The notes beneath the pieces are model-generated. The model was not told the origin of the DNA. It saw only the letters and a program-made list of their open reading frames with translations, and made no database searches. The position numbers and the translations under genes are program-made. From a bacterium (lineage in GTDB: Bacteria > Sysuimicrobiota > Sysuimicrobiia > Sysuimicrobiales > Humicultoraceae), in assembly GCA_041497675.1 (NCBI GenBank), contig JBGQGY010000003.1:335-64334 (forward strand): DNA of 64,000 nucleotides, read 5' to 3'. Below are positions 909 to 51,030 of this stretch, one piece after another. Within the stretch, counting starts at the first letter, position 1. Each line of letters starts with the position of its first letter.

Positions 909-912
909 GCCT

Positions 913-1433: not shown

Positions 1434-3007
1434 CGGCTTCCCCCTCCGCTTCCCGCCGCGCGCTGGGCTGTGGCCAGATCACGGTCGCGCGGTGGACCGT
1501 AGCCATGATCGCGCAGGTACGTGTAGATCTCCTGAAGTTTCGAGAACCCGTGAAAGTCGGGGCGATACTCCGATTCGAGCTTGTAGTCCAGTTCGACGTA
1601 CTTGTTCAGCGTCACGAAGAACGCATACTGGACGATGTTGGACGGCGCTTCAGGCGCGTCGCGGTTCTTGTCGATAAAGAGGTTGACGATGTCGACCTTG
1701 GGAAGATCGTCGGTGGCGAACCCCTCGGCCCGCGAGCGCGTCTCGATCAATTGCTGCAGGTCGTGGGTCGCCTTCCAGTCCTTGGCCAGCACCATCGCCA
1801 CGTCCAAGTCGTACTCGAGGTCGCCGGACCCCATGCTGTGGTGCATCGTCGGCCGGTTGAACGGGTTGAAGACCTCGCCTTCCTCCACCGGTCGCTCGTC
1901 GAGCCGACAGCCTTCTTTGTCCAGCGGCGAGATGGCAAAGATCGGGCAGTCGAGTTCGAGGCTCATCTCCGCCAGCGCGGTTGAGATTCGGTCCGTGCGG
2001 CCCTTCGAGTCGTCCAGGTGCTCGGGCAGCGGGATCTTTTGTAGGTAGTCAAAGAAGATGCAGATGTCCTGTGTCTGAAACTCCTGCATCAGGTTGTGGG
2101 CGTGCGCCCTGATCCGATCGAGTGTTTCCTTCCTGCCGGCCTCGACCAAATGCAGGAAGGGCCCGTAACGGGCGAGCTTGGACTGCGCCGAAGCGACTCG
2201 AGGACCGACCGGCCGGCCGTCCGTGTCGGCGCCGATCAAAATCGAGGTCGGGTTGAGACCGGTCTCTTTCGCGATGAGCCGCGCGGCCAAGACGCGCCGG
2301 GTTTGCTCCCACGTGTAATAGAGCACGGGGATCTTGTGGTTGACGGCCACGTGCACGGCCAGATCGAGCGCCAGGTTGGTCTTCCCGCGGCGCGGCGCGC
2401 CGGCAAGGCCATAGTAGAACCCGCGGCGCAGCCCCGAGAGCAGCGTGTTGAGCCGGTCGAAGGGGCTGATCGAAAACCCGAGGATCCCGTCACTGGCCAC
2501 CGGCCGCAATTCCAACAAGGGACTGAACGCCTCCGAGATCGGCGCCACCTGGCGCCGAATACGCCGCCGCTGGATCTCCATCAGATTGTGGACGCAGTCC
2601 GCCGTGAACTGCACGATGTCGGGGTGCTGGCCGTCCTGCCGGTACAGGTACCCACCGATCGATTCGTGGACTTGGCCGAGCAGGTCGCGGCTCTCGCGGG
2701 CTTTCAGCACGTCGACCTGGGCCATCGCCTCCCCGGCGCTCAACGGCGGGTTCTCGATCACGTTGGCCAGATACCGCTCCATCTCAGGCGTCAACAGGCC
2801 GCGGTCGACCAGATGGACGCGCAGGGTGGACTCATCGACGACGGCATCCTGGGCGGCGTAGAGGTCGATGATGACCTTGGCCAGCCGCCGCGCGAGTGGC
2901 GACGCCAGCAGATCAACATGAAACCCCTCCGTCGAGGCAAGGGTAATCAAATGCCGATCGCGGATAAATCCGCTAAGCAGACGGATTTCAATCTGGTACA
3001 GATCCAC
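1430..3007 (-). CDS. atypical DnaB-like helicase C-terminal domain (RecA-fold) ATPase, 525 aa
   Basis: Walker A GLAGAPRRGKTNLALDLAV, DnaB-like Walker B ICIFFDYLQKI, SGDLEYDLDVAMVL (compare DnaB SGSIEQDADVV). Has insertions and a long divergent C-terminal tail. Stop overlaps the MerR start, so it is the first gene of a four-gene minus-strand operon. Confidence 0.7.
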   Translation of the reverse strand: MDLYQIEIRLLSGFIRDRHLITLASTEGFHVDLLASPLARRLAKVIIDLYAAQDAVVDESTLRVHLVDRGLLTPEMERYLANVIENPPLSAGEAMAQVDVLKARESRDLLGQVHESIGGYLYRQDGQHPDIVQFTADCVHNLMEIQRRRIRRQVAPISEAFSPLLELRPVASDGILGFSISPFDRLNTLLSGLRRGFYYGLAGAPRRGKTNLALDLAVHVAVNHKIPVLYYTWEQTRRVLAARLIAKETGLNPTSILIGADTDGRPVGPRVASAQSKLARYGPFLHLVEAGRKETLDRIRAHAHNLMQEFQTQDICIFFDYLQKIPLPEHLDDSKGRTDRISTALAEMSLELDCPIFAISPLDKEGCRLDERPVEEGEVFNPFNRPTMHHSMGSGDLEYDLDVAMVLAKDWKATHDLQQLIETRSRAEGFATDDLPKVDIVNLFIDKNRDAPEAPSNIVQYAFFVTLNKYVELDYKLESEYRPDFHGFSKLQEIYTYLRDHGYGPPRDRDLATAQRAAGSGGGSR

Positions 3008-3192
3008 CGGGCAGTTCCCTCCGATATCGGAAATCGGGGATCGTGCCTGACCCGGACTCAGTCAACCCTCTCGCCGTGAACTTCCCAGGAACCTCTCTGA
3101 CGTTGGCTTGCCTCGGGCATAACCTTGTTGCGATTGTGTTCCAATCTTCATCCGGGCAAGTCAGAATATGCCCAGAAGATTGTGGGGCTAGT

Positions 3193-3275
3193 CACGAACG
3201 GGCAAACCCGGAGCGATTCGGGGGCGCAAAACTACGGGACCGGGGAATATACATACCGGTCCCTGTTTTTCTTGG
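3193..3275 (+). promoter_or_regulatory. c-di-GMP-I (GEMM) riboswitch-like element in the 5' leader of the GspE-family ATPase gene
   Basis: CACGAACGGGCAAACC-CGGA-GCGA-UUCGG-GGGCGCAAAACUACGGG then hairpin ACGGGACCGG-GGAAUAUACAUA-CCGGUCCC followed by UGUUUUUCUU. It has the GGCAAACC box, a GNRA-capped first hairpin and a GCGCAAA(G/A)C junction resembling the Vibrio Vc2 aptamer (GGCAAACC AUUC GAAA GAGU GGGACGCAAAGCC). The second hairpin plus U-tract could act as terminator. Confidence 0.6.
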
Positions 3276-3317
3276 GGCTGCTGCCACATGGCAAAACGGC
3301 ATGGGTGAGGGTACGCA

Positions 3318-5654
3318 TTGGATCGGTCCCCGGACGAAGGCGCCATCCAGACTCTGAAAGCTTCCGTTGGCCTGCCCGCGGAGAGCCTGACGCTCGAACG
3401 GGCTTTCCTTCATGCGGAGGCACGCCAGGCCATGCGGTCCGCACAATGGGAGACCGCGCGCGACGCGCTGCAGCGTCTAGCGGCGGCCGATCCAGAGGAA
3501 CCATGGGTCTGCTGGGACCTGGCGGCGGCGTGCCGGGCGCTCGAGGACCACGAAGGCGCAGCTCTCGCGTATCTGACCGCGGCCGACAAGCACCTGGCCC
3601 GCGGCGAGACCGACCAGGTCCTCCAAGCGTACCAGCAGGCCGCCGCGATCTCGCCAAATGATCCGCAGATTCAAGCCAAGCTGGCGGAACCAGCCCCACC
3701 TCCATCGCAGCCCTCGGCAAGCCGGCCGGCAAACGCTTCACCGCGACCGGCGCCGCCCGCCGCGACCACGTCGCCGGAGACCGGTGCGCGTGCCGTGCCG
3801 GAGCGCAGCGACGCTCCGGTATTGCCAACGCCTCCCGGGCCATCGAAGGCCGACAAGCGAGGGGCGGCGGCGCCCGATGCACCTCCCACACCACCCGCGC
3901 GCGAGCCCGTCGACCCAGCATCCCAGGCGGCGCGGGCACCGCGGCCGCGACTGGGCAGCAAAACCGAGACGCTGGGCCAGGTGCTCCAGCAACTGGGCAT
4001 CATCACCGCCCACCAACTCAACGAATCGCTCGAGATTCAGGCGCGCACCGGCGAGCGCATCGGGCAAATCCTGCGCGACATGGGCGTGATCAGCGACACC
4101 GACCTGGCGCGCGCCATGGCGCACCAGTGGGCCTACCCGTACCTCTCCCTGGCGGAGCGGCGGCCAGATACTGAGATCGTCAGGCTGATCCCGCACGCGC
4201 TGGCGATGCGGCACAAGTGCGTCGCCGTCGAGCGCGCCGGGGGCCGGCTGCTCGTCGCGATCAGTGATCCGCTGAACGTCATCGCCGTCGACGACGTCCG
4301 CCTCATCACCGGCATGGAAGTCGACCTCGCGGTCGCCACCGAAGAAGACATCACCACCGCGCTGGCGCGCGGCTATCAGCTGTCCGACACGACGATTGAG
4401 AAGGTCCTGCGCGAGTCCTTACCCGATTCTGCGGGGGATCTCGGCGATGAGGATGTCTCGATCGAGCAGCTGAAGGCGTTGGTTGAGGAAGCGCCTGTCG
4501 TCAAGCTCGTCAACCTCGTAGTGGATGAGGCGGTCAAGCAAGGCGCCAGCGATATCCACGTCGAGCCGCAGCGCAACGGCGTCTGGGTGCGGTTTCGCGT
4601 GGACGGGGTGCTGCGCGACGTGATGAACCCGCCTAAGCACCTGAAGTCGGCGCTCGTCTCGCGCATGAAGATCATGGCTGAGATGGACATCGCCGAGCGC
4701 CGTCGCCCCCAGGATGGGCGCATCCATCTGATCGCCGATGGCCGCAACATCGACCTGCGCGTCTCGACGCTCCCCACGATGTATGGCGAGAAAATCGTGA
4801 TGCGCATCCTGGATCAAGCCCAGACCATGATCGGGCTGACCCGGCTGGGCTTCCACAGTGATACGCTCCGACAGTGGGAGAGCTCGGTCAGCAAACCCCA
4901 CGGGATGGTGTTGGTCACCGGGCCGACCGGGAGCGGGAAGACGACGACCCTCTACGCCACGCTGAGCAAGCTCAACACGCCCGAACTCAATGTCGTGACG
5001 GTCGAGGACCCCGTCGAGTATCAGATCAGCCGTATCAACCAGGTCCAAGTGAACATTAAAGCCGGCATGACCTTTGCCACCGCGCTCCGGCACATCCTGC
5101 GCCAGGACCCAGACATCGTCATGGTCGGTGAGATCCGCGACAAAGACACGGCCGAGATCGCGGTGCAGGCCGCACTCACCGGCCACTTGGTCCTCTCAAC
5201 GCTCCACACCAACGACGCGGCGGGCGCGGTCACGCGGCTGGTCGACATGGGGGTTGAACCGTTCCTGATCAGCTCGTCGGTCATTGGGGTGCTGGCGCAG
5301 CGTCTCGCCCGGGCCATCTGCTCCCGTTGCAAGGTCGCCTACTCGCCGCCACCCGAAGCGCTCGGCCGTCTCGGTGCGGATGTGCGAATCGATTCCGATG
5401 TGACCTTCTATAGAGGCCAAGGCTGCGAGTCGTGCCGCGGCACCGGTTACCGCGGTCGGATCGGCATCTTCGAACTGCTGATCATCAGTGACGCCGTCCG
5501 CGACCTGGTTGTCCACAACGCCTCCTCCACCGAGATCAAGGCGCAGGCGATCCGTGAGGGCATGCGCACGCTGCGGGATGACGGCCTCGAGAAAGTCATG
5601 TCCGGCATCTCCACCATCGACGAGATCCTGCGGGTCGTGTACGTCCAGGACTGA
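3318..5654 (+). CDS. PilB/GspE-family ATPase with N-terminal TPR-like domain and Pro/Ala-rich linker (778 aa)
   Basis: T2SSE_N-like region (LGQVLQQLGIITAHQL...), Walker A GPTGSGKTT, Asp box, Walker B DPDIVMVGEIRD, His box LVLSTLHTND, tetracysteine CSRC...CESC. TTG start at 3318; ATG at 3432 is an alternative. N-terminal ~100 aa TPR-like, then low-complexity P/A-rich segment. Confidence 0.9.
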   Translation: MDRSPDEGAIQTLKASVGLPAESLTLERAFLHAEARQAMRSAQWETARDALQRLAAADPEEPWVCWDLAAACRALEDHEGAALAYLTAADKHLARGETDQVLQAYQQAAAISPNDPQIQAKLAEPAPPPSQPSASRPANASPRPAPPAATTSPETGARAVPERSDAPVLPTPPGPSKADKRGAAAPDAPPTPPAREPVDPASQAARAPRPRLGSKTETLGQVLQQLGIITAHQLNESLEIQARTGERIGQILRDMGVISDTDLARAMAHQWAYPYLSLAERRPDTEIVRLIPHALAMRHKCVAVERAGGRLLVAISDPLNVIAVDDVRLITGMEVDLAVATEEDITTALARGYQLSDTTIEKVLRESLPDSAGDLGDEDVSIEQLKALVEEAPVVKLVNLVVDEAVKQGASDIHVEPQRNGVWVRFRVDGVLRDVMNPPKHLKSALVSRMKIMAEMDIAERRRPQDGRIHLIADGRNIDLRVSTLPTMYGEKIVMRILDQAQTMIGLTRLGFHSDTLRQWESSVSKPHGMVLVTGPTGSGKTTTLYATLSKLNTPELNVVTVEDPVEYQISRINQVQVNIKAGMTFATALRHILRQDPDIVMVGEIRDKDTAEIAVQAALTGHLVLSTLHTNDAAGAVTRLVDMGVEPFLISSSVIGVLAQRLARAICSRCKVAYSPPPEALGRLGADVRIDSDVTFYRGQGCESCRGTGYRGRIGIFELLIISDAVRDLVVHNASSTEIKAQAIREGMRTLRDDGLEKVMSGISTIDEILRVVYVQD

Positions 5655-5698
5655 TCTCGACGGGTCGACGGGGCGGACGAGCCCGTGGTCAAAAGGAT

Positions 5699-5738
5699 GA
5701 GGAGCCGGCGCGGTCACGCCGGCTCCTCGGTGTTGTGT
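5699..5738. terminator. bidirectional intrinsic terminator between convergent genes
   Basis: GAGGAGCCGGCG-cggtca-CGCCGGCTCCTC 12-bp stem followed by GGTGTTGTGT on plus, with CCTTTT on the minus side. Confidence 0.6.
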
Positions 5739-5747
5739 AGAGCGCCG

Positions 5748-6104
5748 CTAGACGAGCGCGGCAGCCAGCTGGCTGTTACGCCGCATCTCCAACCGGATGC
5801 GACCGAGATTGGCCTGTTTGCCGCCGACGACCACCATCATGGCGTCGGGGCCCGCCGGGCCGACCGCGATCGGACCGTCATCGTACTCGAGCAACATGCT
5901 GCGCATCGCCCCCCGGCTCATTTCGCGTCCCATCGAATCCGCCGCGGCCATGCTGCTGGCCACGATGGCGCCAACGGCCTCCAGGTCGATGGCCTCTTCA
6001 CTCGTCATCCCCTCGACGACAAACCCATCCCGGCCAACGACCAGGACGGCGACGACCCCCTCGACTTTGGCCAGGTCGCTGATGACATCCTTCAGCTGCG
6101 ACAT
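5748..6104 (-). CDS. Roadblock/LC7 (MglB-like) domain protein
   Basis: MSQLKDVISDLAKVEGVVAVLVVGRDGFVVEG...AIDLEAVGAIVASSMAAADSMG...MMVVVGGKQANLGRIRLEMRR matches the Roadblock/LC7 pattern. Internal ATG at 6104 with upstream AGGAGGGGAA; the longer ORF 5748..6248 is an antisense-style extension. Confidence 0.8.
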   Translation of the reverse strand: MSQLKDVISDLAKVEGVVAVLVVGRDGFVVEGMTSEEAIDLEAVGAIVASSMAAADSMGREMSRGAMRSMLLEYDDGPIAVGPAGPDAMMVVVGGKQANLGRIRLEMRRNSQLAAALV

Positions 6105-6153
6105 CGTGCGTTCCCCTCCTACTCCAGAGTTCCGGCCCTCTAGCGTCCGGGAG

Positions 6154-6969
6154 CTACAGTGTTCCGTGCGACGGTACGCCCATGACACCCCGCAGTTTGG
6201 TGAGCGCTGAGGCCAGCACCCGCGAGACATGTTTCTGCGAGATGCCAATTCTCTTTGAGGCTTCGGTCTGGGTGAGATCGGTGTAGAACAGGTAGTAGAC
6301 GACCTTGCGCTGTAGCGAGTTCAGGGATTCCATCGCTTCGACCAGCATCACGCGATCTTCTATGGGTAACTGGAAGCTGATGTGGGATCGGTGCTTGATG
6401 CGCTCTCGGTCGACGCGCAGGTCGCCGCCCTCTTCTTCGGTCTCAAGGGAGATCGTCCGGAGGGCCTCACGGGTACGCAGCACCTCGAGCAGCCCTTCCT
6501 CTTCGATATTGAGCTCGGAGGCCAGCTCTTCCAGCCCGGGAAACCGCCCCTCTTCCGCAACGTATTTGCCGACGGTGTCCTCGATCTGGGTGTTGAGCTT
6601 CTGCAGCCAGCGCGGTTTCCGAATCGTGTCGCGCTGATCCCGCAGGTAATGGCGGATCTCGCCGCGGACCAGATAGCTCGCGTACGTCGCGAACTTCGCG
6701 CCCCGCGTCGGATCGAAGGCCGCGATGGCATTGAGCAACCCGATGTACCCCACCTGCACGAGATCGTCGGTCGGAACACCCGAGAACACAAATTCTGAGG
6801 CGATGCGCCGCACCAGCGGCGTGCACGCGTGGACGACTCGTTCTCGGATCGCTGGGTCGGGGCTCTCGACGTACTGGGCCATCAATACATCTTCGTTCTC
6901 GTGCTCGGTCACACGGGGTGTGATCTGCTCTTGTCGAACCGGTGCGCGTTGCGCGCTGCGGACTGCCAT
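6154..6969 (-). CDS. RNA polymerase sigma factor, sigma-70 family group 3 (SigB/SigF/FliA-like)
   Basis: Region 2 DLVQVGYIGLLNAIAAFDPTRGAKFATYASYLVRGEIRHYLRD; region 4 HTH LTQTEASKRIGISQKHVSRVLASALTKLR. GGAGG lies 6 nt upstream of the ATG at 6969. Confidence 0.85.
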   Translation of the reverse strand: MAVRSAQRAPVRQEQITPRVTEHENEDVLMAQYVESPDPAIRERVVHACTPLVRRIASEFVFSGVPTDDLVQVGYIGLLNAIAAFDPTRGAKFATYASYLVRGEIRHYLRDQRDTIRKPRWLQKLNTQIEDTVGKYVAEEGRFPGLEELASELNIEEEGLLEVLRTREALRTISLETEEEGGDLRVDRERIKHRSHISFQLPIEDRVMLVEAMESLNSLQRKVVYYLFYTDLTQTEASKRIGISQKHVSRVLASALTKLRGVMGVPSHGTL

Positions 6970-6980
6970 CGTGCCCCTCC

Positions 6981-7022
6981 GAGGAAAAAAGATAAGTCCT
7001 CTCGAGCTGCCCCAAGAGGACC
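6981..7022 (-). terminator. intrinsic terminator forming the expression platform of riboswitch A
   Basis: Minus-strand RNA: AGGUCCUCU-UGGGGCAGCUCG-AGAGGACU UAUCUUUUUUCC, immediately before RBS GGAGG and the sigma factor ATG. Confidence 0.6.
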
Positions 7023-7031
7023 TGATGTTCT

Positions 7032-7110
7032 CCCTTCGGCAGCCCGGCCAACCGTGACGGTCCCGGAGCTTTGCGCCCCCACCTTGCGATGGGTTTGCCC
7101 TTTCGAGGAT
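7032..7110 (-). promoter_or_regulatory. c-di-GMP-I (GEMM) riboswitch-like aptamer A, leader of the sigma factor/Roadblock operon
   Basis: Minus-strand RNA: UCGAAAGGGCAAACC-CAUC-GCAA-GGUGGGG-GCGCAAAGCUCCGGGACCGUCACGGUUGGCCGGGCUGCCGAAGGG. GGCAAACC box, GCAA GNRA-capped hairpin, GCGCAAAGC junction. About 85% identical to element B at 12046..12140. Confidence 0.7.
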
Positions 7111-7149
7111 CGCTATTCAGTTAGAAGAAGACCACAAACCCTTACTGAC

Positions 7150-7181
7150 CTTAGTTTACATCATTCTTAGTTTAGATCATT
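7150..7181. repeat. 16-bp tandem direct repeat (cttagttta[c/g]atcatt x2) in an AT-rich island upstream of riboswitch A
   Basis: Read directly: ccttagtttacatcatt / cttagtttagatcatt. About 45-60 nt upstream of the riboswitch 5' end, so likely in the promoter. Local GC falls well below the window average. Confidence 0.6.
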
Positions 7182-7257
7182 GAGAACATTTCTGCAAGCT
7201 CTGTGTCAGAAATTGTACCCACCCTCGGACCCGTTTAGACCTCCCTGACCGGTAATC

Positions 7258-8199
7258 TTACCGGGCCGCGGATGCCCCCGCCGCGGGACGGGATCGGCTG
7301 ACGTACTTGAACGCCAGTCGGTGTGAAACCAGTGCCTCCAGAATGCCCCCGACTTGGGCCGGCGTCAAGCCCGTTTCGGAGGCAATCTCGGCCAGGGTGT
7401 GCGCGCCGTCGAGGAGACGCAGAACCGTCCCGGTGACGCCGTTGCTCACGACCCCGGCGAGCTCCGCGGCGACGTCCGAAGGCAGATTCTCCGCGACACC
7501 CGGCGATAGCAGATACCGTGCCTCCCGGGCGAACCGGCCGAAAACAGCTTCCAGTTCCCGCGACGGCGCTGCGGGCGGTGGCGGCGCGACCTCAGGCTGC
7601 GCACCCGCCTCCTCGACCGCGGCGACCTTGATCGCCGGGACCTCGATCACCGGGACGTCAACCGGCGCAGCGTCGACGGGCGCAACGTCGGCGGGCGCAG
7701 CGTCGACCACCGCAATGGGTTCTGAGGCCGGCGTGACGACTGAGACTGTCTGCGCCTGCAGCGAGCCGGTGATGACGATGATCCATCCCCTGGCCTGCTT
7801 CATGACGGCGCCAGACGTCGCTGCCGACGCCGGCTCGATGACGGCGAGCGCTCCCCCATTGAGGTCCAGCACCGCTGGTTTGGGTCCGAGCACGAGCACT
7901 ACGGCGCTCGCTTGGTCAGACTGTAGACGGGCGATGTAGCGGTCGAGGTGGACGAAGTCAGTATGCAGCGCCGCGCCTGAAAATTCTAGTGACGCGATCC
8001 GCTCCACGACGTCCTTGCGCAGCCGTAACTGAGCGGATTCCGCGCGGGCCGGTGGACCATCGGCGAACACCGCATCCGGCGCGCCGACATGCCAGCCGCT
8101 GGGCCCAAAGACCGCCGCGCAGGGCGTCGATGCTTCGAAAATCGCCGCCACGCCTCCGAGCCAAGCGTAATGAGTAATCCTGGCAGTCGCGGCGGCCAC
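7258..8199 (-). CDS. hypothetical protein with C-terminal HTH-like segment and internal (APVDA)n low-complexity repeat
   Basis: 313-aa ORF with uniform codon use. C-terminal ...VLRLLDGAHTLAEIASETGLTPAQVGGILEALVSHRLAF resembles a winged-helix/HTH. Last gene of the riboswitch-B operon; start is 4 nt after the upstream stop. Confidence 0.55.
   Translation of the reverse strand: MAAATARITHYAWLGGVAAIFEASTPCAAVFGPSGWHVGAPDAVFADGPPARAESAQLRLRKDVVERIASLEFSGAALHTDFVHLDRYIARLQSDQASAVVLVLGPKPAVLDLNGGALAVIEPASAATSGAVMKQARGWIIVITGSLQAQTVSVVTPASEPIAVVDAAPADVAPVDAAPVDVPVIEVPAIKVAAVEEAGAQPEVAPPPPAAPSRELEAVFGRFAREARYLLSPGVAENLPSDVAAELAGVVSNGVTGTVLRLLDGAHTLAEIASETGLTPAQVGGILEALVSHRLAFKYVSRSRPAAGASAAR
7664..7708. 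repeat. 15-bp tandem repeat x3 (ggcgcagcgtcgacg) inside the CDS
   Basis: ggcgcagcgtcgacg / ggcgcaacgtcggcg / ggcgcagcgtcgacc, coding APVDAAPVDAAPVD on the minus strand. Confidence 0.7.
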
Positions 8200-8202
8200 G
8201 AC

Positions 8203-8979
8203 TCAGATGTCCTCCTGTACCGTCCGCTGCCAGAAACCACCCAGCGCGAGAAAGACGAAGCCCGCCACCCACAGCGCATTGATCGTGTGGACTTCCGAGT
8301 AGAGTTCGTACCAGCTGAGAAACGCGTAGCCCAGACTGGCGACCGCCAGACAGAGCGCCGAGGCGGCGACGGCCAGCCAGGTATATGCCGAGGTGCCGCC
8401 GCGAAACCCGACGGCGGGTAGCAACCCCGCGGGCACGAGAAAGACCGCGATGGTCGGATAGAAGACCGCCAGCACCTTCACCGTTGTCGGCGCCGGACTG
8501 GCCATGATCGGGCTCACGATGAACTCGAAGCCAAGCGCCCACCCCACGACACCGAGTCCCACCAGCGCGAGGCGGACCGGGCGATCGACCATTGGTGCAA
8601 CCAACCGGATCTCCAGACCGAGGGCGAGACCAAGCAGCAGGTAGAAGACGACGAAGAACCCGTCGGCGATCGACGGGTACGGCAGTGCCCGTCCCCCCCA
8701 CCATTGGTAGAACGCAAAGACCCCGCGGCCGGCCGCCCAGGCTAGCGCCGCCAGCCCCCCGATGGACCACACCGCGCGCTCGCGATCGCCCGACACGTAG
8801 GCGCGTCGAGCCGCGAGGCACCCGATACCGGCAAGGATCGGCGCAACGATCTGAACTGCCGAGCCCAGCACGTGTCGGGCCAGGCGGCCCTGGAGGCTGG
8901 TTTCTGCCGCACCGTACGCGTAGGCGGCGGCCAGGACAAGGCCGCCCATGACGATGAGCAGCACGCGAAAACGCTTCAT
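8203..8979 (-). CDS. integral membrane protein, ~7 predicted TM helices (258 aa), unknown function
   Basis: MKRFRVLLIVMGGLVLAAAYAY... followed by multiple hydrophobic stretches. ATG at 8979 overlaps the upstream stop (ATGA). The longer 353-aa ORF has an Arg-rich N-terminal extension that looks like antisense or out-of-frame readthrough. Confidence 0.65.
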   Translation of the reverse strand: MKRFRVLLIVMGGLVLAAAYAYGAAETSLQGRLARHVLGSAVQIVAPILAGIGCLAARRAYVSGDRERAVWSIGGLAALAWAAGRGVFAFYQWWGGRALPYPSIADGFFVVFYLLLGLALGLEIRLVAPMVDRPVRLALVGLGVVGWALGFEFIVSPIMASPAPTTVKVLAVFYPTIAVFLVPAGLLPAVGFRGGTSAYTWLAVAASALCLAVASLGYAFLSWYELYSEVHTINALWVAGFVFLALGGFWQRTVQEDI

Positions 8980-9830
8980 CGAGCCGCTCCGGAGTCGCCG
9001 GCACCTGCCGCGTCGCGTTCGGCTGCGGCAATCGCCCGGTCGACGAACGCACGACCGGCGACGGCGATGATCGGTTCGCACGCCGTCTCGACGATGACCC
9101 GCCACGACGCCTCGGAGATCGGAGGCGCATACACGCGGGTTCCGTCGACCCGGCCGCCATGCGGCGCGAGCGCGGCGGCGAGCGTCGATGTGAACCGCTG
9201 GGCGAGCCGCTGGCCGCGATGACGCGCTACCCGTTCGGCCACGCCTTCCATGGTGCGCGGCCACGGTCGGGTCGACGCCTCAACGGGGGCCACGGGTTCC
9301 GTCGCCACCACGCGCTCGCCGGCAGCAGTCGCTCGCGCTGGCGGCGCTTCGCTCACCGGGGCGACCGGCTCGACGACCGGCGGAGCGGTCACCACCTCAG
9401 CCACCTCCGCCGGCTCAACCGCTGGCATCGACTGCGACGTCACGAGGCTCTGCCCTGGGACTTTGAAGACCGTCGCCGGGGCTGCGGACGGTGGGCCCGC
9501 CGCCTGTCCGAAGGCGACGTCTGGCGGCGCGCCCACATACACGCTCAGCGTCGAACCGTTTGACGCCATCTCGCGGAAGAGGTCGTGCCCGCCGGCACCG
9601 GCCAGCACGGCCTCTCCGCCGTCAACGTCAAAGAACCAGGCGTCCTGCGCCTCGCCCTCGTGCACCCAGACCAGGCTCTCCATTTCGAGGTCGGCGAGGT
9701 AGATGCCGCCTTCAAACCCGCGGCCGATCAAATGCGCCAGCAGCCCGTCGATATCCACCGCATCGCCGGGGAAGTCGGTGACTAAGGCCGGTCCGGCCCG
9801 GAGCACTTCGAGTGCTTGACGCCGGTTCAC
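8976..9830 (-). CDS. hypothetical protein, DUF4388-like N-terminal motif (tentative), Pro/Ala/Val-rich middle
   Basis: GDAVDIDGLLAHLIGRGFEGGIYL resembles the DUF4388 G-x-x-x-F-x-L-x-D-L-L-Q-x-L...G-x-L signature as I recall it. Probable GTG start at 9830, with AGGAG 5 nt upstream and 8 nt after the TAXI gene stop. Confidence 0.5.
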   Translation of the reverse strand: MNRRQALEVLRAGPALVTDFPGDAVDIDGLLAHLIGRGFEGGIYLADLEMESLVWVHEGEAQDAWFFDVDGGEAVLAGAGGHDLFREMASNGSTLSVYVGAPPDVAFGQAAGPPSAAPATVFKVPGQSLVTSQSMPAVEPAEVAEVVTAPPVVEPVAPVSEAPPARATAAGERVVATEPVAPVEASTRPWPRTMEGVAERVARHRGQRLAQRFTSTLAAALAPHGGRVDGTRVYAPPISEASWRVIVETACEPIIAVAGRAFVDRAIAAAERDAAGAGDSGAAR

Positions 9831-9838
9831 GTGAGCTC

Positions 9839-10810
9839 CTACTTGATGCCTCGCTCCCTGTAGAAACGCAGAGCGCCGGCATGCATCGTAATTGGCATCC
9901 CCGAGCGTGACGTGTTGGTCGTAATGTCCTTGCCGCGCGCATGGGCGGCCTGCAATCGGTCGGTGTTGGTCCACAGCGCCGAGGTCAACGTGTAGATCAG
10001 GGCTTCCTCGATGTCCTGACGCGTCACCAGCATCGCCATCACCGCTGCGGTATCCACTGACTCGGTCTGGCCCTTGTAGGTGTTGGCCGGTACCGTCACG
10101 CGTGTGTAATAGGGGTACTGCTCGCGCAGCATCTCCACGACGTCTCTTGGGATCGCCAGGACCTTCAGGTCGCGGCTGGACGCGATATCCTGTACAGCCG
10201 CTGTCGGGAACCCCGCTGTAATGAACGCCGCGTCGATCACGCCATCCTTCAACTGATCGGCGGCCTCGGCGAAGTTCAGGAAGTCCGGCCGCGTGTTGTA
10301 ATAGCCGAGTTCAAACGCGCGGAGAATCTGACGCGCGTTGATCTCGGTGCCGCTGCCCGGCGCGCCGACGGCGATGCGCTTGCCCTTGAGATCGGCGATC
10401 GAATTGATGTTCTTGGACTTCAGCGTGACGACCTGAATCGTCTCCGGATACAACATCGCCATGCCTCGAAGATTCGCGATCGGCTGGGTCTTGTTGGCGA
10501 CGCGATCCATAAACATCTCGGTCCCGTGGAAGGCGTAGTAGGTGATATCGTTCTGGATGAACGCCACCGCCACGTCGCTCCGCTGTAGCAGGCGGATGTT
10601 GGCGACCGAGGCGCCGGACGTCTGCGCCGTCGCCTGGACGTTTGGCACCTTGCCGCTCCACACTTCCGCCAGCGCCGCGCCCAACGGGAAGTAGACACCC
10701 GCCGTGCCGCCCGTTGCAATGGCGACAAACGTGCGCTGTTGGGCCATGGCGGGCCAGACGGCTACGCTGAGCACCGCCAGTATGACGATTCCGAGTGTGA
10801 TCCGACGCAT
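9839..10810 (-). CDS. TAXI-family TRAP transporter solute-binding protein (orphan, no DctQM permease adjacent)
   Basis: Signal peptide MRRITLGIVILAVLSVAVWPAMA; VAIATGGTAGVYFPLGAALAEV matches the TAXI signature. Start codon choice among M1, M9 and M16 is uncertain. Confidence 0.8.
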   Translation of the reverse strand: MRRITLGIVILAVLSVAVWPAMAQQRTFVAIATGGTAGVYFPLGAALAEVWSGKVPNVQATAQTSGASVANIRLLQRSDVAVAFIQNDITYYAFHGTEMFMDRVANKTQPIANLRGMAMLYPETIQVVTLKSKNINSIADLKGKRIAVGAPGSGTEINARQILRAFELGYYNTRPDFLNFAEAADQLKDGVIDAAFITAGFPTAAVQDIASSRDLKVLAIPRDVVEMLREQYPYYTRVTVPANTYKGQTESVDTAAVMAMLVTRQDIEEALIYTLTSALWTNTDRLQAAHARGKDITTNTSRSGMPITMHAGALRFYRERGIK

Positions 10811-10858
10811 GTGCGCTCTCCTCCTCATCATCGTGTCGAACGGATGGACCCTCATACG

Positions 10859-11983
10859 CTATCGCTGGATAATCTCAAACTGTCCTTGGTGCACTCGGGC
10901 CACGGCTACCGGGCGGGACGGCACACCCCATCGATCAAGGGTGATCTGACCGGTCACACCGGGAAACTTCCGGAGCCCCTGCAGCGCGGTCTTGATCGCG
11001 ACGGGGCTTCTGTCACCACGGCGCATCGTGGACGCCAGCATCTTCACCGCATCGTAGGCCTGTGCCGCGAAATGGTCCGGCGTCTCGTTGAACTTCTTCC
11101 GATACTTGGCCCCGAACTCTTGGACGATCGGTAGCGGATCGCTGGCCACAAACGGCGCAGGCAAGAGCACATCCTCCGCGTAGATTTTGGCCCACGCCAC
11201 GAGATCGGTCGAATACAGCGCGTCGGATCCCACGATCGGCACCCGAACGCCGCGGCCTTTGAGCGCCGCCACGATCAACGCGCCCTCATCCGGGTACCCG
11301 GCCACAAAGACCGCGTCCGCCCCGTCGGCGAGCACGCCGGTCACGTGACGGGTGAAGTCGGTGTCCCCGTCGTGGTAGAGCCTCGTGCCGACGACCCGAC
11401 CACCCAACCCCTTGATCCGCTCGGCAAATGCGAGGGCGACCATGGTGCCGTACTCGTTGGCATCGTGGATGATGGCCAACCGGCGCGTATTCCGGGTACG
11501 CACAAGAAAATCCGCGAGGGTGCGCGCCTGAGCTTCAGCGGACAGCGACGTGCGGAAAAACGAGGACCCCGAGTAGGGAATCGTCCCGGTAGCGCCTGGG
11601 CTGACCAGGGGGATCCCCGCGCGCTCAGCCATCGGCGCGACGGCCAGCGCGGTCGCGTCCGTCACCGGTCCCACCACGGCGACGATCTTTTGCTTCACCA
11701 GATGCTCGAACTGCTTTGCGGCCTCATCGGCGGTGCCGCGATCGTCCTGCACCATCAGCGTGATCGACGCGCCGCCGACCCCACCCGAGGCGTTGATCTC
11801 TTCAGCGGCGAGCGTGGCACCCTGCACGACGGACTTGGCCGCGGCGGGCACGCCGCTATTGAGCGGCGCCAGGATGCCGATAATAACTGACTCCTGCGCC
11901 CGGAGCGCGGCGCTGGGACCGCAGGCGGAGGTCGCGAGCGCTGCGAAGATGATCGCCGCGGCCCCGAGTGTCATCGTTTTCAT
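10859..11983 (-). CDS. type 1 periplasmic binding protein (LivJ/branched-chain amino acid-like), lipoprotein; orphan SBP
   Basis: MKTMTLGAAAIIFAALATSAC (lipobox), then a PBP1 Leu/Ile/Val-binding-like fold (IVAVVGPVTDATALAVAPMAERAGIPLVSP...). First gene downstream of riboswitch B. Confidence 0.75.
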   Translation of the reverse strand: MKTMTLGAAAIIFAALATSACGPSAALRAQESVIIGILAPLNSGVPAAAKSVVQGATLAAEEINASGGVGGASITLMVQDDRGTADEAAKQFEHLVKQKIVAVVGPVTDATALAVAPMAERAGIPLVSPGATGTIPYSGSSFFRTSLSAEAQARTLADFLVRTRNTRRLAIIHDANEYGTMVALAFAERIKGLGGRVVGTRLYHDGDTDFTRHVTGVLADGADAVFVAGYPDEGALIVAALKGRGVRVPIVGSDALYSTDLVAWAKIYAEDVLLPAPFVASDPLPIVQEFGAKYRKKFNETPDHFAAQAYDAVKMLASTMRRGDRSPVAIKTALQGLRKFPGVTGQITLDRWGVPSRPVAVARVHQGQFEIIQR

Positions 11984-11997
11984 GTGTGTCACCGCCT

Positions 11998-12036
11998 GTG
12001 AACACAAAATGCCTTTCGGCCGCCTGCCGAAAGGCA
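11998..12036 (-). terminator. intrinsic terminator forming the expression platform of riboswitch B
   Basis: Minus-strand RNA: AUGCCUUUCGGC-AGGCG-GCCGAAAGGCAU UUUGUGUUC. Perfect 12-bp stem plus U-tract, 15 nt before the SBP ATG. Confidence 0.65.
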
Positions 12037-12045
12037 TACCACGCC

Positions 12046-12140
12046 TGCCCCTTCGGCAACCCGGCCGGCCGCGCGGTTGGACGTCCCGCGCGCCCCCGTG
12101 GCTTTGCGTCCCCACCTTGCGATGGGTTTGCCCGTTCGGA
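12046..12140 (-). promoter_or_regulatory. c-di-GMP-I (GEMM) riboswitch-like aptamer B, leader of the SBP/DUF4388/7TM operon
   Basis: Minus-strand RNA: CCGAACGGGCAAACC-CAUC-GCAA-GGUGGGG-ACGCAAAGCCACGGGGGCGCGCGGGACGUCCAACCGCGCGGCCGGCCGGGUUGCCGAAGGGG. It has the GGCAAACC box, a GNRA-capped hairpin and GGGACGCAAAGCC, which matches the Vc2 junction exactly. Confidence 0.75.
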
Positions 12141-12261
12141 GGCTCTATGCAGTTTGCGGTGCTACCTTTTCTCTACCCCGCCGCGGCTTCGCCTAGACCT
12201 CTGCCTACCCTCCAACAGATGTCCCGAGAGTTGCGGCAGGGTTCCTCCAAGAAGCCATACG

Positions 12262-13191
12262 CTAGAGCGAGAGCAATCGACGGTACAGCTGCGTGACGTT
12301 GTAGACGTACCACTTGGTCTCGTCATAGGGCGGGATGCCTTCATAGCGTTCCACCGCGGCGCGGCCCGCATTGTACGCGGCCAGGGCGAGATGCACGTTG
12401 TCGTATCCGAACCGATCGAGGTTGCCACGCAAGTACCGGATCGTCCCGTAGAGGTTTTGCACGGGATCCTGTGGATCGACGCCCAATGCCCGCGCTGTAT
12501 CCGGCATCAACTGGCCCAATCCCAGTGCCCCCGCCCGCGACGTCACATGCGGTTGGAATCCGGACTCGACCACGACGAGAGCCACGACCAAACGCGGGTC
12601 GATGTTGAATCGATACGAGTATCCGAGCAGCGCCTGCGCGATCTTCTCTGCAACCTCGGGCTGGAGTCTCGGGTTGTAGTAACGCGCGAGCTGCGTATAG
12701 CTCTCAATCGTCGTGACCCACGCCGGCGCCGTCGGTGCGCCGCCCTTCAACGCCGCCAGTTTTGGCACGGGCTTGACGACCCGTAGCCCCTGCAGCGCCA
12801 GCTCGTGGATGCGGTCAGATCCTGGTGCCAGCAGGGCGCGCTGAAACGCCACCTCGGCCTCCCCGGACCGGCCGCCCTGGGCGAGGACGTATCCCCACCA
12901 CAACAGCACGGTGGAATCGCGTGGCGCCAGACGGACCGCCGATTCAAGCACCTGCACCGCCAGCCGTGGCTCGCCCCGATAGTGGTAGACGATCCCAAGC
13001 CACAACCAGCCCTCGGGGTCACTCGGCCGCTGCGCAACCTCGCGGGTGAAGACCGCTTCGGCGTCGCGCAGGCGGCCCTGTGCGACCAGCGCCGCGCCCT
13101 CCCGGAGCGCCGCCGGACCGCTCGGGGCCGCGACGGCCGAGCCGGCCGCAAGAGTGATCAGCAACACGAGCAGGATCACGCCGGTCTTCAT
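12262..13191 (-). CDS. TPR-repeat lytic transglycosylase (SLT domain)
   Basis: Signal/TM MKTGVILLVLLITLAAGSAVA, TPR-like repeats, then an SLT core VVVESGFQPHVTSRAGALGLGQLMPDTA...AYNAG. ATG at 13191 overlaps the Roadblock stop. Confidence 0.8.
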   Translation of the reverse strand: MKTGVILLVLLITLAAGSAVAAPSGPAALREGAALVAQGRLRDAEAVFTREVAQRPSDPEGWLWLGIVYHYRGEPRLAVQVLESAVRLAPRDSTVLLWWGYVLAQGGRSGEAEVAFQRALLAPGSDRIHELALQGLRVVKPVPKLAALKGGAPTAPAWVTTIESYTQLARYYNPRLQPEVAEKIAQALLGYSYRFNIDPRLVVALVVVESGFQPHVTSRAGALGLGQLMPDTARALGVDPQDPVQNLYGTIRYLRGNLDRFGYDNVHLALAAYNAGRAAVERYEGIPPYDETKWYVYNVTQLYRRLLSL

Positions 13192-13547
13192 CCCAGTTGC
13201 TCCACGATCTCGGCCTTCCGGCGCCGTATCTGCAGCCGTGCCCGGGCCAGATTGCCGCCGGCATCGAGCACGGTCGCCACATAGTGTATCTGGCTCACCG
13301 CCATCACCAAGACCGCCAGGCTTTCGGTCGTGAGCGTCACGTAGTCCAGATCCCCGCCCTCGAGCTTCCGAGTGCAATAGGCCCCCACTTTGATCAGCGC
13401 GGCCAGGTCGACACTGGCTTTGGAGAGGTCGCTCGGGCCGCCCTTCGTCACCGCCTCGATGACAGTACCATCCATTGCCACGACCGCGGCGGCACGCGTG
13501 TCGTCGCCCACGAGCTCCTGCAAGATGCCTCTTAGTTTGGTTCCCAT
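13188..13547 (-). CDS. Roadblock/LC7 (MglB-like) domain protein, second copy
   Basis: MGTKLRGILQELVGDDTRAAAVVAMDGTVIEAV...VDLAALIKVGAYCTRKL...LAVLVMAVSQIHYVATVLDAGGN. Start taken at M47 of the listed ORF; M33 at 13589 is an alternative. Confidence 0.75.
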   Translation of the reverse strand: MGTKLRGILQELVGDDTRAAAVVAMDGTVIEAVTKGGPSDLSKASVDLAALIKVGAYCTRKLEGGDLDYVTLTTESLAVLVMAVSQIHYVATVLDAGGNLARARLQIRRRKAEIVEQLG

Positions 13548-13651: not shown

Positions 13652-14620
13652 ATGCACACCGCGTTGATCGAACGCATCCGCACACATCGCCGGATCCTGA
13701 CCAGCCGTTGGTCGAAGGCCCTGAAAGAGGCCCCCGGCGCGAACCCGTGGTGGCAAGACACTGAACGGACCGATCGACTCCTGTTCGCCGGCCTTGAAGC
13801 CCTGATCGAGGCCGTGAGCTCCGGCAACGATGAGTTGTTCGTCGCCTTCGCCTCGCGCCTCAGCCAGGAGGCCTTCGCGCTCCAGGTTCCACCCAATGTC
13901 GTCATCCGCGCCATCCTGACCGGAAAGGTCATTGTCACCGAGTTCCTGACCGAACCCGACTCCTCGCCTGGCCTCGACGTCGCCACCGTGCAGTCGCTCG
14001 ATCGGGTCGTCTCCGCCGGCATCCTCGAAGGGATCCGGCGGCACGAACGACAGCGCGAACGCCGGCTGCTCACCGCGCAAGAGCAGCTCGAGCAGCTGCG
14101 CGACCGCCTCCGCCGTCAGGTCGTTGTCGACCCGGCGACGGGTCTCTACAACGCCAACTACTACTCGATCGCCGTGCGCCGCGAAGTTCGCCGTAGCCAG
14201 CGGTTCGGCCGCGTCTTTTCGCTCGCCCTCGTCGCCCCCGACAAAGATGACGGGGTCCGCGACGCCTGGGGCGACGAAGGTCTGCGTGCCGTGTCGATCA
14301 CACTCGCCGACATCCTGACCCGCTGCACCCGGCAGGTCGATCTGCGGGCGGCGCTCGGCGGCGTCCGCTTCGGTCTGATCCTGCCTGAAACGCCGATGGA
14401 GGGCGCGTTCGTGCTCGCCGAGCGCATCCGCGTCGCGGTCGAACAGCAGGCGTTCACACTCCCCGATCACCCATCCCCCGTGACACAGACTGTCAGTATC
14501 GGGCTGGCGAGTTTCCCCCGCGATGCCGAAGATGACCGAGGGATGCTCTCCCGGCTCGAAGAGGCCCTGGCGCGCGCTCGCGGTGGCGGCAACACGACCG
14601 TCGCTGCCGCGTCGGCATAG
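13652..14620 (+). CDS. GGDEF-domain protein with degenerate active site (GGVRF) and intact RxxD I-site; probable c-di-GMP receptor
   Basis: DPATGLYNANYYSIAVRREV...RQVDLRAALGGVRFGLILPET. RQVD lies 5 aa before GG(V)(R)F. Internal ATG (MHTALIERIRT) chosen because the upstream part of the ORF overlaps the divergent Roadblock gene. Confidence 0.75.
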   Translation: MHTALIERIRTHRRILTSRWSKALKEAPGANPWWQDTERTDRLLFAGLEALIEAVSSGNDELFVAFASRLSQEAFALQVPPNVVIRAILTGKVIVTEFLTEPDSSPGLDVATVQSLDRVVSAGILEGIRRHERQRERRLLTAQEQLEQLRDRLRRQVVVDPATGLYNANYYSIAVRREVRRSQRFGRVFSLALVAPDKDDGVRDAWGDEGLRAVSITLADILTRCTRQVDLRAALGGVRFGLILPETPMEGAFVLAERIRVAVEQQAFTLPDHPSPVTQTVSIGLASFPRDAEDDRGMLSRLEEALARARGGGNTTVAAASA

Positions 14621-14641: not shown

Positions 14642-16264
14642 TTATCGCTCCCGCCACAGGCGTAGTTGCACTTCGAACGGCGGTTTTACCTGCAGCACCC
14701 TGAGAAACACGTCGACCAGTTCCGGATCCAGCGTCGTCCCGGCCAGCGCACGCAGTTCATCCATCGCTTCGGCGACGGTCCGGCCACGGCGGTACGGACG
14801 GTCGGATATCATCGCATCAAACGTCTCTGCCACGCGTATGATGCGGGCACCCAGCGGAATCGCGTCGCCCGCAAGCCCGTCCGGGTAGCCGCTGCCGTCG
14901 TACGCTTCTTGATGGTGCTTCACGTCGTCAACCAGCGGACGAAACGGCGCCATCTCGCGGAGAATGGCCGCGCCGCGTTCGGGGTGCTGGTTCATCGCCT
15001 TGCGCTCGTCATCGCTGAGCGCGGCGCGCTTGCGCAGCACGCCCTCCGGCGCGCTGATCTTCCCGATATCATGGAGGAGGCTCGCCCACTGGATGCGCTC
15101 AACCTCTCCAGGGGGCAGGCCGATCTCCGTCGCGACGGCCACCGCATTGGCGGCCACGCGCTGTGAGTGCCCCTGCGCGTAGGGATCCTTGGCCTCCAGC
15201 GCCGCAGCCAGGGTGTTCACGGCGCTCAGCAAGAACTCACGCGATTGACTGTGCATTTGCGCGTCATGCAATGGAGGCGACGCCATCTCGGCCAGGGTAT
15301 ACGTCGCGCCCAGATGCTCGTCCCTGAAGAGCCGGATCCCGCGCCGTGCCAAGTGCACCACGCCAAACGATCGCTCGGCCGCGCGCAGCGGCACGAGCAG
15401 CGCCGATCCCGTCGCATCGTCGCCAAATACGCTCACCCACCGTGCGTCCGTCGACGCGTCGACGACCAGTTGTGGCAGACCGGAGCGCATGGCCTCCTCG
15501 ACCACGGCCGCTGAGTCCAGCACCTCTCCACGCGCGCGGAGCCTGCCGGCGGCGTCGAGACCGGCTTCGATGACCAGCCGCTGCTCGATATCCAGCACGG
15601 CGACCAGTCCGTAGTCCGCGTCGGCCAGATGCAGCGACCGATCGAGGAGCCTGCGGGCGCGATCGGCCAACGGCTGCCCGGCCATGGCGGTCAAGGTCGC
15701 GTGGATCTGCGCGGACACGTGCACGCGCCGGTTGAGTTCCTCGGCGCCGCGCAGCGCCGATTGCATCGCTTCAGTACGACGCTGTTCCATGAACCCGACG
15801 AGCAGTCCGATCAGCATCAGCAGCGCGGCCCTGGGGAGGATCCCCGCGGCAGGTTGGGAGTGGAGCGTAATCGCGGCCGCGTACCCCAGGGCAGAGACCC
15901 AACCGCCGACGACTCCCGCCACCAGACCGCGCCCGGCCGTCCCCCAGATCAGCACCGGCACATAGAAGAAAAAGAAGAAGCTCGTCATCCCGCCGGTCTC
16001 GCCCACGAGCAAGGACACGATGAGTAGCTCGAGGATCGTGCCGACGTAGGAGGCGACGTGCGGCCCAGACTGGCTGGGCGCCAGCGCGCTCAGCAGCCCG
16101 GCTGGGAACAGGAGCAATAGGAGAAGCGCGGAGGTGAGGCTGGGGCTCGCACGGTCGGTCTGTGTCCCGATCAACAGGACCGAAAACCCAAACAGTACCG
16201 CCAACCCGCGGAGATAGAGCGCCCACCATTCGAAGGGGGCCTTCTGGGCCGCCGATTTCATCAC
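14642..16264 (-). CDS. membrane-anchored GAF/HD-GYP c-di-GMP phosphodiesterase
   Basis: N-terminal multi-TM region, a GAF-like middle, HD (LHDIGK) and HHEAYDGSGYP (HD-GYP signature). Confidence 0.8.
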   Translation of the reverse strand: MMKSAAQKAPFEWWALYLRGLAVLFGFSVLLIGTQTDRASPSLTSALLLLLLFPAGLLSALAPSQSGPHVASYVGTILELLIVSLLVGETGGMTSFFFFFYVPVLIWGTAGRGLVAGVVGGWVSALGYAAAITLHSQPAAGILPRAALLMLIGLLVGFMEQRRTEAMQSALRGAEELNRRVHVSAQIHATLTAMAGQPLADRARRLLDRSLHLADADYGLVAVLDIEQRLVIEAGLDAAGRLRARGEVLDSAAVVEEAMRSGLPQLVVDASTDARWVSVFGDDATGSALLVPLRAAERSFGVVHLARRGIRLFRDEHLGATYTLAEMASPPLHDAQMHSQSREFLLSAVNTLAAALEAKDPYAQGHSQRVAANAVAVATEIGLPPGEVERIQWASLLHDIGKISAPEGVLRKRAALSDDERKAMNQHPERGAAILREMAPFRPLVDDVKHHQEAYDGSGYPDGLAGDAIPLGARIIRVAETFDAMISDRPYRRGRTVAEAMDELRALAGTTLDPELVDVFLRVLQVKPPFEVQLRLWRER

Positions 16265-28423: not shown

Positions 28424-28532
28424 GGCACGCTCCTTGATCGCGATGTGTACGTGTTGCTTGGGGACTGCCCGCGGTTTGTCCTGCGGGCACCCCCAGCCTG
28501 CGCGCGGGGTATAATTGTATGAGGAGGCGCGT

Positions 28533-51027: not shown

Positions 51028-51030
51028 GCG

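Follow-up and report, generated by a model that had tools for sequence, protein, structure and literature searches.

What do two Roadblock/LC7 proteins do when no gene for a small GTPase lies beside them? The question is raised by a stretch of 64,000 nucleotides from a member of the Sysuimicrobiota (GenBank assembly GCA_041497675.1, contig JBGQGY010000003.1, positions 335 to 64,334; hereafter the window), which carries two such genes, here designated Robl1 and Robl2. The partnership of Roadblock/LC7 proteins with small GTPases is an ancient one, seen with MglB in bacteria as well as with Ragulator in eukaryotes. An earlier sequence-only reading of this DNA had taken the absence of an adjacent mglA gene as remarkable. 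That premise did not survive comparison with the literature: 328 of 749 MglB-family genes (44%) do not adjoin mglA (PMC4316618), and MglC is a characterised orphan paralogue (PMC4719450), so that an orphan Roadblock protein is ordinary. What is unusual is the context, namely an invariant sigma factor-Roadblock unit and the riboswitch that precedes it. We tentatively propose, at somewhat below an even chance of being right, that Robl1 and Robl2 form a Roadblock pair uncoupled from a GTPase, which works with the sigma factor of the same transcript in a circuit of cyclic di-GMP (c-di-GMP) and type IV pili. The coordinates given in the sequence-only reading were all confirmed.

Identity of the two Roadblock proteins

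Robl1 (5748-6104, minus strand; 118 amino acids) is a canonical Roadblock/LC7 protein and was matched by the Pfam profile PF03259 (Robl_LC7) above its gathering threshold (E=2.9e-15, 56.2 bits against a cut-off of 23). When the Robl1 profile was compared with the PDB, archaeal Roadblock proteins were closest, followed by CvnB5 and then by MglB (matches to 9jue, 7f8m, CvnB5 3leq with E=5e-10, and MglB structures with E of about 1e-6). With the NCBIfam MglB equivalog model NF052242, Robl1 scored 29.6 bits against a cut-off of 200.

Robl2 (13188-13547, minus strand; 119 amino acids) is a divergent, MglC-like member. The 119-amino-acid form was not matched by PF03259, and the corresponding 165-amino-acid open reading frame (ORF) stayed below the threshold (E=0.093, 12.9 bits, cut-off 23); NF052242 did not match Robl2 either, and exact-sequence look-ups of the 119-amino-acid form and of P0066 returned no match. 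A precomputed PF03259 match was present in 4 of 45 Robl2 homologues, and many are labelled by JGI as COG-type Roadblock/MglB. In hhalign, the Robl2 family aligned end to end with the Robl1 family (probability 96.5%, E=9.5e-10), and its profile matched MglC (7ct3, E=6e-6) and an Asgard Roadblock protein (9jue, E=6e-3) in the PDB. The AlphaFold model of Robl2 (predicted local distance difference test (pLDDT) score, 83.7) had the order helix-strand-strand-helix-strand-strand-strand-helix, which is that expected of a Roadblock domain. The top 50 Foldseek matches of this model were all MglC, MglB, Roadblock (including Roadblock3) or LAMTOR structures, with a probability of 1.00 and TM-scores up to 0.85. 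Within the Robl2 family, G27 was invariant and D26 was conserved in at least 90% of the sequences.

Both ORFs code for true members of the Roadblock/LC7 fold, and they represent two paralogue types of long standing: Robl1 is the canonical one, closest to CvnB and the archaeal Roadblock proteins, and Robl2 is MglC-like. The Roadblock assignment made in the sequence-only reading thus held for Robl1 by the PF03259 hidden Markov model itself, whereas Robl2 failed that model, an outcome that the sequence-only reading had named as refuting, and owes its placement to the profile comparisons, AlphaFold and Foldseek.

Conservation of the island and of the sigma factor-Robl1 unit

The Robl1 alignment was scanned against 185,579 species genomes, and the 80 loci returned were mapped by blastp (37 clade loci and 43 remote loci); a scan of the Robl2 alignment against metagenomes gave 26 more loci. 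The homologues are labelled Armatimonadota at NCBI, and the matches among metagenome-assembled genomes (MAGs), Candidatus Fervidifonticultor and Geohabitans, are Candidatus Sysuimicrobiota, formerly CSP1-3. MAGs with the island include GCA_031459875.1 and GCA_041493755.1, and hot springs and soil are among the sampled habitats of these contigs.

In the window, the genes form one co-directional island in the order Robl2, an exported lytic transglycosylase with TPR and SLT domains (TPR-SLT), a riboswitch, a solute-binding protein (SBP), a TAXI-family solute-binding protein (TAXI), the proteins X284, M258 and X313, a second riboswitch, the sigma factor and Robl1. Robl2 is therefore the first gene of the island and Robl1 the last, a point absent from the sequence-only reading. 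On its flanks the island has genes for an HD-GYP protein, for a GGDEF protein of degenerate type and for an MshEN-type PilB. The order HD-GYP, GGDEF (on the opposite strand), Robl2, TPR-SLT, SBP, TAXI, X284, M258, X313, sigma factor, Robl1 was kept in loci L001, L007 and L009, except that the GGDEF gene is absent in L009. Homologues of SBP and TAXI were not detected in some metagenome loci (for example L106, L116 and L117), so that the core of the island consists of Robl2, TPR-SLT, X284, M258, X313, the sigma factor and Robl1.

The gene that precedes Robl1 (6154-6969, minus strand) encodes a SigB/F/G-like alternative sigma factor of 271 amino acids with Sigma70 regions 2, 3 and 4 in Pfam, of which regions 2 and 4 pass. 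Its best NCBIfam match was TIGR02980 (SigBFG), with 179.7 bits, below the subfamily cut-off of 234.35. The spacer between the sigma factor gene and Robl1 is 49 nucleotides long, carries the Shine-Dalgarno sequence AGGAGGGG 5' of the Robl1 ATG, and had no terminator-like site. Downstream of Robl1, a bidirectional terminator hairpin (5698-5729, both strands; a 13-pair stem with T-runs on either strand) separates it from the convergent pilB. The sigma factor-Robl1 unit is bounded by terminators and has none inside, a layout that fits the suggestion that one Roadblock gene is co-transcribed with a sigma factor behind a riboswitch.

The sigma factor gene was immediately upstream of Robl1 in all 37 clade loci, over a range of Robl1 identities from 94% to 44%, and neighboured the homologue in none of the 43 remote loci. 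The gap was 3-70 nucleotides in 33 of the 37, and in the remaining four a MerR gene and a Robl2-type gene lie between. In the group at about 50% identity (as read in L040), the sigma factor gene follows X313 directly and there is no riboswitch, a MerR gene follows TAXI, and lipB follows Robl1; the sigma factor-Robl1 unit is nonetheless kept. At the other end of the island, TPR-SLT came next after Robl2 in all loci with a readable downstream gene, at identities as low as 53%. The unusual partners pointed out in the sequence-only reading are, by this neighbourhood analysis, conserved and not accidental.

Riboswitches and promoter

Upstream of the sigma factor gene lies an aptamer of the c-di-GMP-I-GGC class, a GEMM-I variant (7034-7108, minus strand; Rfam RF03167, 63.5 bits against a gathering score of 59), followed by a terminator-type expression platform (6994-7023, minus strand), a hairpin and U-run directly 5' of the Shine-Dalgarno sequence of the sigma factor. 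A riboswitch was found upstream of the sigma factor gene in 24 of 30 assessable related loci. The minimum-free-energy fold contained the aptamer stems and an extended terminator helix, and favours neither direction of switching.

The other riboswitch of the island is of the c-di-GMP-I class (aptamer at 12052-12142, minus strand; Rfam RF01051, 57.5 bits against a gathering score of 35) and also has a terminator-type platform with a hairpin terminator (12009-12037, minus strand). It lies between TPR-SLT and the SBP-TAXI-X284-M258-X313 operon and is predicted to gate SBP through X313; the island would then carry two riboswitch-controlled attenuators in series on the same strand. A further GEMM-I-like aptamer lies directly upstream of pilB (3192-3274, plus strand; 36.2 bits, E=3.8e-6), and scores below the Rfam gathering score, whereas the pilB leaders of L027 (12228-12313) and L020 (6834-6912) pass it. 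The c-di-GMP-I riboswitch within the island and the riboswitch-like element before pilB were absent from the sequence-only reading.

Upstream of the riboswitch of the sigma factor, the motif GTCTAA-N14-GGGTAC (7215-7240, minus strand) resembles the sigma-B/F promoter consensus. It was the sole match in the window, and no further copies that would define a local regulon were found there. The search pattern was met, with a variable spacer, in the close relatives L015, L016, L022 and L023, and near variants occur in four more loci (L012, L014, L024 and L030). A sigma-70-like element, TTGCA-N17-TAnnnT, downstream of the GTCTAA motif is more widely conserved. The promoter pattern is compatible with autoregulation of the sigma factor-Robl1 unit.

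Search for a small GTPase and the remote relatives

The window was scanned in all six frames for the motif G-x4-GK[ST]. The five matches were in a DnaB-like protein, PilB, an amidase (27002-28801) and two frames not called as genes, and Pfam scans of about 40 large ORFs of the window gave no GTPase family; the earlier statement that the window holds no GTPase gene is upheld by both scans. The possibility that mglA lies just outside was likewise followed up: the 10 kb beyond the window start contained no GTPase, the families found there being MerR, DUF6812, PilT-like (T2SSE), T2SSF (PilC-type) and pilin. The same motif scan turned up no small GTPase in any of the 37 clade loci or the 26 metagenome loci (63 in total, with flanks of about 6 kb); neither the window nor these 63 loci gave an MglA-family GTPase within four genes of Robl1 or Robl2. 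As a positive control, the scan picked up, in 19 of the 43 remote loci, a GTPase of 192-205 amino acids with GPG[LM]SGKT and NKRD encoded no more than 3.5 kb away; the two that were checked (from L045 and L088) both match Pfam Arf.

The nearest relatives of Robl1 outside the clade are 118-amino-acid Roadblock proteins encoded in MglA/DUF4388/Roadblock clusters of Desulfomonilaceae, Acidobacteriota and others, and are 36-47% identical to it. In L045, which is labelled an uncultured delta proteobacterium and whose ranking neighbours are Desulfomonilaceae MAGs, the Robl1 homologue stands beside genes (1617-7367) for a REC-DUF4388 response regulator, an MglB-like protein, an MglA-like GTPase, a DUF4388 protein, a DnaA-like ATPase and an ankyrin-repeat protein. 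Proteins like the DUF4388 protein of L045 are met with repeatedly in the remote loci and resemble a Roadblock protein in the C-terminal half (hhalign probability 91.7%, E=7.6e-7). The sigma-coupled clade may, on reasonable grounds, have descended from a GTPase-coupled Roadblock family.

The same data bear on the best surviving alternative, according to which Robl1, Robl2 or both are GTPase-activating protein (GAP), guanine nucleotide exchange factor (GEF) or co-GAP subunits that serve an MglA-family GTPase with its gene in another part of the genome, on the pattern of MglC in Myxococcus. The frequency of orphan MglB-family genes, the presence of mglA in 200 of 238 genomes that encode such genes (PMC4316618), and the precedent of MglC as a characterised orphan all speak for it, as do the best sequence and structure match of Robl2, which is to MglC with D26-G27 kept, and the MglA clusters in which the nearest relatives of Robl1 outside the clade are found. 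Set against these are the absence of a GTPase from the window and from the 63 related loci, when 19 of 43 remote loci have one, the score of Robl1 far below the MglB equivalog cut-off, and an invariant neighbour that is a sigma factor and not a GTPase. We consider this alternative unlikely, although it deserves serious weight; were it true, the genes would be an ordinary orphan MglB/MglC pair.

The sister lineage and PilB

In four clade loci (L044, L064, L067 and L069), a Robl2-type gene and, behind it, a Robl1-type gene come after the sigma factor gene, which is preceded by a riboswitch in all four. L064 and L067 are labelled "Bacillati bacterium ANGP1". In L067, the c-di-GMP-I-GGC riboswitch and the genes for the sigma factor, MerR, the Robl2-type protein, the Robl1-type protein and PilB follow one another on one strand with overlapping stops and starts; PilB is present in L064 too, and in L044 and L069 the contig stops short of that position. 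The Robl2-type protein of L067 is 34% identical to Robl2 (E=1e-15) as against 21% to Robl1, from which it follows that the two paralogue types are old. In this sister lineage, the sigma factor is linked with both Roadblock types, and a search of its loci for a transglycosylase homologue gave none.

The PilB gene of the window (3318-5654, plus strand) encodes a PilB-type ATPase with TPR and MshEN N-terminal domains (Pfam T2SSE, E=1e-144; MshEN, E=3e-20) and is convergent with Robl1. PilB was found in the fetched flank of 20 of the 37 clade loci, and within 1.5 kb in 12 of them. It could be supposed that the Roadblock pair are type IV pilus adaptors that bind PilB (for example at its TPR or MshEN N-terminus) or position the motor, and that the linkage to the sigma factor reflects shared c-di-GMP control only. 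The adjacency of PilB and Robl1 in the window, the frequency of PilB in the flanks, the single-strand order of L064 and L067, the GEMM-I-type leader of pilB itself, and the control of pilus polarity by MglB and MglC in Myxococcus are all in keeping with such a role. PilB was, however, not found within 6 kb in the group at about 50% identity despite the kept sigma factor-Robl1 unit, and its linkage is looser than that of the sigma factor (20 against 37 of the 37 loci). We regard a pure adaptor role as rather improbable, and place it behind a GTPase acting in trans.

The possibility of inherited gene order without functional relationship

The gene order might also be no more than synteny inherited in a narrow lineage, with the Roadblock proteins acting elsewhere. 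Most of the loci do come from one candidate phylum, but the sigma factor-Robl1 unit persists in three different operon contexts and at protein identities as low as 44%, even though the genes around it differ, which makes this explanation very unlikely.

The transglycosylase

TPR-SLT (12262-13191, minus strand; Pfam SLT, E=7e-22, and TPR families) starts within an ATGA overlap with the Robl2 stop, in keeping with the translational coupling proposed in the sequence-only reading. Its N-terminus, as read from the sequence, is a Sec-type signal peptide of the cleavable type, MKTGVILLVLLITLAAGSAVAAPSG, with few cytoplasmic residues; Robl2 has no signal peptide, so that the two proteins belong to different compartments and a direct partnership is unlikely. 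Regulation or chaperoning of TPR-SLT by Robl2, with cell-wall remodelling at pilus sites as the outcome (the role put forward in the sequence-only reading), is favoured by the overlap and by the constant place of TPR-SLT after Robl2, but retains only the slightest chance given a cytoplasmic Robl2, an exported enzyme, and a sister lineage with the Robl2-type gene in the sigma factor operon.

A possible mode of action

It is common for an alternative sigma factor to share its transcript with its own regulator (as RsbW does with sigma-B and SpoIIAB with sigma-F), and Roadblock proteins serve as homo- or heterodimeric binding platforms (MglB, MglC, LAMTOR2/3). Against this background, we suggest that Robl1 and Robl2 work without a co-encoded GTPase, as small dimeric protein-binding adaptors, possibly as a heterodimer, as in other Roadblock paralogues. 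The riboswitch for a cyclic dinucleotide and its terminator would gate expression of the sigma factor and Robl1, the sigma-B/F-like promoter suggests autoregulation, and Robl1 would be made solely together with the sigma factor. Robl1 would most likely bind or tune the sigma factor as a co-expressed feedback or anti-sigma-like partner; such regulation is plausible from the gene context. The level of c-di-GMP would thereby be linked to a sigma-dependent programme connected with type IV pili.

Several points weigh against this proposal. The tie between Robl1 and the sigma factor is one of gene context; with PilB nearby in more than half of the clade loci and co-directional in the sister lineage, a role at the pilus machine fits the data about equally well; and an MglA-type GTPase may be encoded elsewhere in the genome, mglA being present in 200 of the 238 genomes with MglB-family genes in the published survey. 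The sigma-B/F-like promoter was seen in the closest relatives only. The literature searched contained nothing on the ligand of the c-di-GMP-I-GGC class, and it contained no Roadblock protein paired with a sigma or anti-sigma factor (the word "roadblock" occurring only in its ordinary sense), although the latter result would also fit a novel system.

A more far-reaching version of the sigma-factor proposal appears doubtful to us, namely that a Roadblock heterodimer of Robl1 and Robl2 which has lost its GTPase partner represents a new class of sigma-factor regulator under cyclic-dinucleotide riboswitch control, coupling c-di-GMP, and possibly the status of PilB or the pilus, to SigB/F-like sigma activity in Sysuimicrobiota and the ANGP1-labelled lineage. 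The arrangement offers something concrete: a Roadblock gene tightly joined to a sigma factor gene behind a riboswitch, and a paralogue at the island's opposite end, would point to a testable GTPase-independent job, the control of a sigma factor in a circuit of c-di-GMP and type IV pili. The island also marks a compact c-di-GMP regulon in an uncultivated, globally common phylum; besides its two or three riboswitches, the regulon comprises an HD-GYP protein, a GGDEF protein that is degenerate but has an I-site, and a PilB of the MshEN type.

Other genes of the island and its surroundings

The divergent gene upstream of Robl2 (13652-14620, plus strand) encodes a protein with a degenerate GGDEF domain (Pfam GGDEF) that reads GGVRF and keeps an intact RxxD I-site five residues upstream. 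The pattern RxxD-x5-G[GAS]xRF was present in 14 of 18 orthologues, in none of these as GG[DE]EF; the protein is probably a c-di-GMP receptor and not a cyclase. The adjoining gene (14642-16264, minus strand) encodes a GAF and HD-GYP phosphodiesterase (Pfam HD_5, E=1.4e-41; GAF_2), whose HD-GYP motif looks intact.

Between the two riboswitches, the operon begins with the Peripla_BP_6-type SBP (10859-11983, minus strand) and TAXI (9839-10855, minus strand; TIGR02122, E=1.4e-103), both of which are optional inserts. X284 (8976-9830, minus strand) had no Pfam match, and its N-terminal domain is weakly like the middle domain of X313 (hhalign E=1.4e-4, probability 53%); in L001, TAXI and X284 were called as a single product of 611 amino acids. 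M258 (8203-8950, minus strand), which is syntenic in relatives, is a polytopic membrane protein with about eight hydrophobic helices as counted along its sequence, and had no match in Pfam or NCBIfam. X313 (7258-8199, minus strand) is a protein without a family, for which the AlphaFold model (pLDDT 70) begins with a part rich in beta structure, continues with a Pro/Ala linker that is disordered, and ends in a winged helix-turn-helix. Weak matches of X313 sequences to HTH_IclR and HTH_47 were found, the copy in the window matching generic helix-turn-helix models only, and DUF742 (CvnC) was matched below the cut-off in 3 of 27 orthologues (best E=4e-5). The PDB profile search with X313 gave generic helix-turn-helix noise only, and Foldseek with its model gave nothing significant; a few local matches to GATOR1 subunits had a high probability but E>0.1 and were not used. 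The Pro/Ala-rich linkers of X313 and X284 are highly variable in length among close relatives. Both proteins were considered as further Roadblock domains, which found no support (hhalign probability at most 0.3%), and as DUF4388/PATAN proteins, which found none either, with a Pfam match of E=0.34 in one orthologue only and hhalign probabilities below 1% against the DUF4388 proteins of the remote loci.

At the start of the window, a second PilB-like ATPase with MshEN and T2SSE domains (3-935, minus strand) is cut by the window edge, and a DnaB_C/AAA_25 helicase-like paralogue (1430-3007, minus strand) follows. This paralogue and then MerR and DUF6812 genes stand between the two PilB-like genes, an arrangement conserved in L001, L002, L003 and L009. 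Farther along the window are a large protein with FecR and DUF6600 domains (30361-32877, minus strand), an isolated pilin-like gene (35062-35523, plus strand), which encodes an N-terminal methylation motif and is distant from the pilB region, and a Bat-like cluster with TPR, BatA/VWA, DUF58 and MoxR-type AAA genes (46570-52146, minus strand).

Comparison with known systems

MglB, the Roadblock GAP of the Ras-like GTPase MglA in Thermus thermophilus and Myxococcus xanthus, has the fold and the size of the two proteins in common with them, the Robl2 model superposes on it at a TM-score of about 0.8, and both systems are linked to type IV pili. Unlike in the MglB system, no MglA was found within four genes or within the 64 kb, Robl1 is far below the MglB equivalog cut-off, and the neighbour is a sigma factor.

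MglC of Myxococcus xanthus (7ct3) is the best profile match and the best Foldseek match of Robl2, is likewise encoded by an orphan gene with the D26-G27 signature, and is likewise a paralogue that works with a second Roadblock protein. The identity is only 22%, however, and MglC residues F25 and I28 are replaced by M and T in Robl2. MglC itself is found in genomes with a group-1 MglA and binds MglB and RomR, not MglA (PMC4719450).

The actinobacterial conservons (CvnA-D; CvnB/MfpX-type) resemble the island in that the Robl1 profile matches CvnB5 and in that both are multi-gene regulatory cassettes. They differ in that the island is without the CvnD GTPase and without a CvnA kinase-like/HATPase domain. 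A few X313 orthologues match DUF742 (CvnC), at scores below threshold. The MglA-DUF4388-Roadblock clusters of the L045 type, in turn, have no sigma factor, unlike the Sysuimicrobiota island.

As a functional analogy, the pairs RsbW/sigma-B, SpoIIAB/sigma-F and FlgM/FliA also have a small gene in the operon of a group-3 sigma factor, with a possible autoregulatory promoter. The protein of the island is, by contrast, a Roadblock protein and not a GHKL kinase or FlgM, and the island has no STAS-type antagonist.

Finally, motility genes controlled by GEMM-I riboswitches resemble the island in having aptamers with terminator platforms upstream of motility and regulatory genes; here, in contrast, two or three aptamers are arrayed along one island, and the GGC variant would gate a sigma factor-Roadblock pair.

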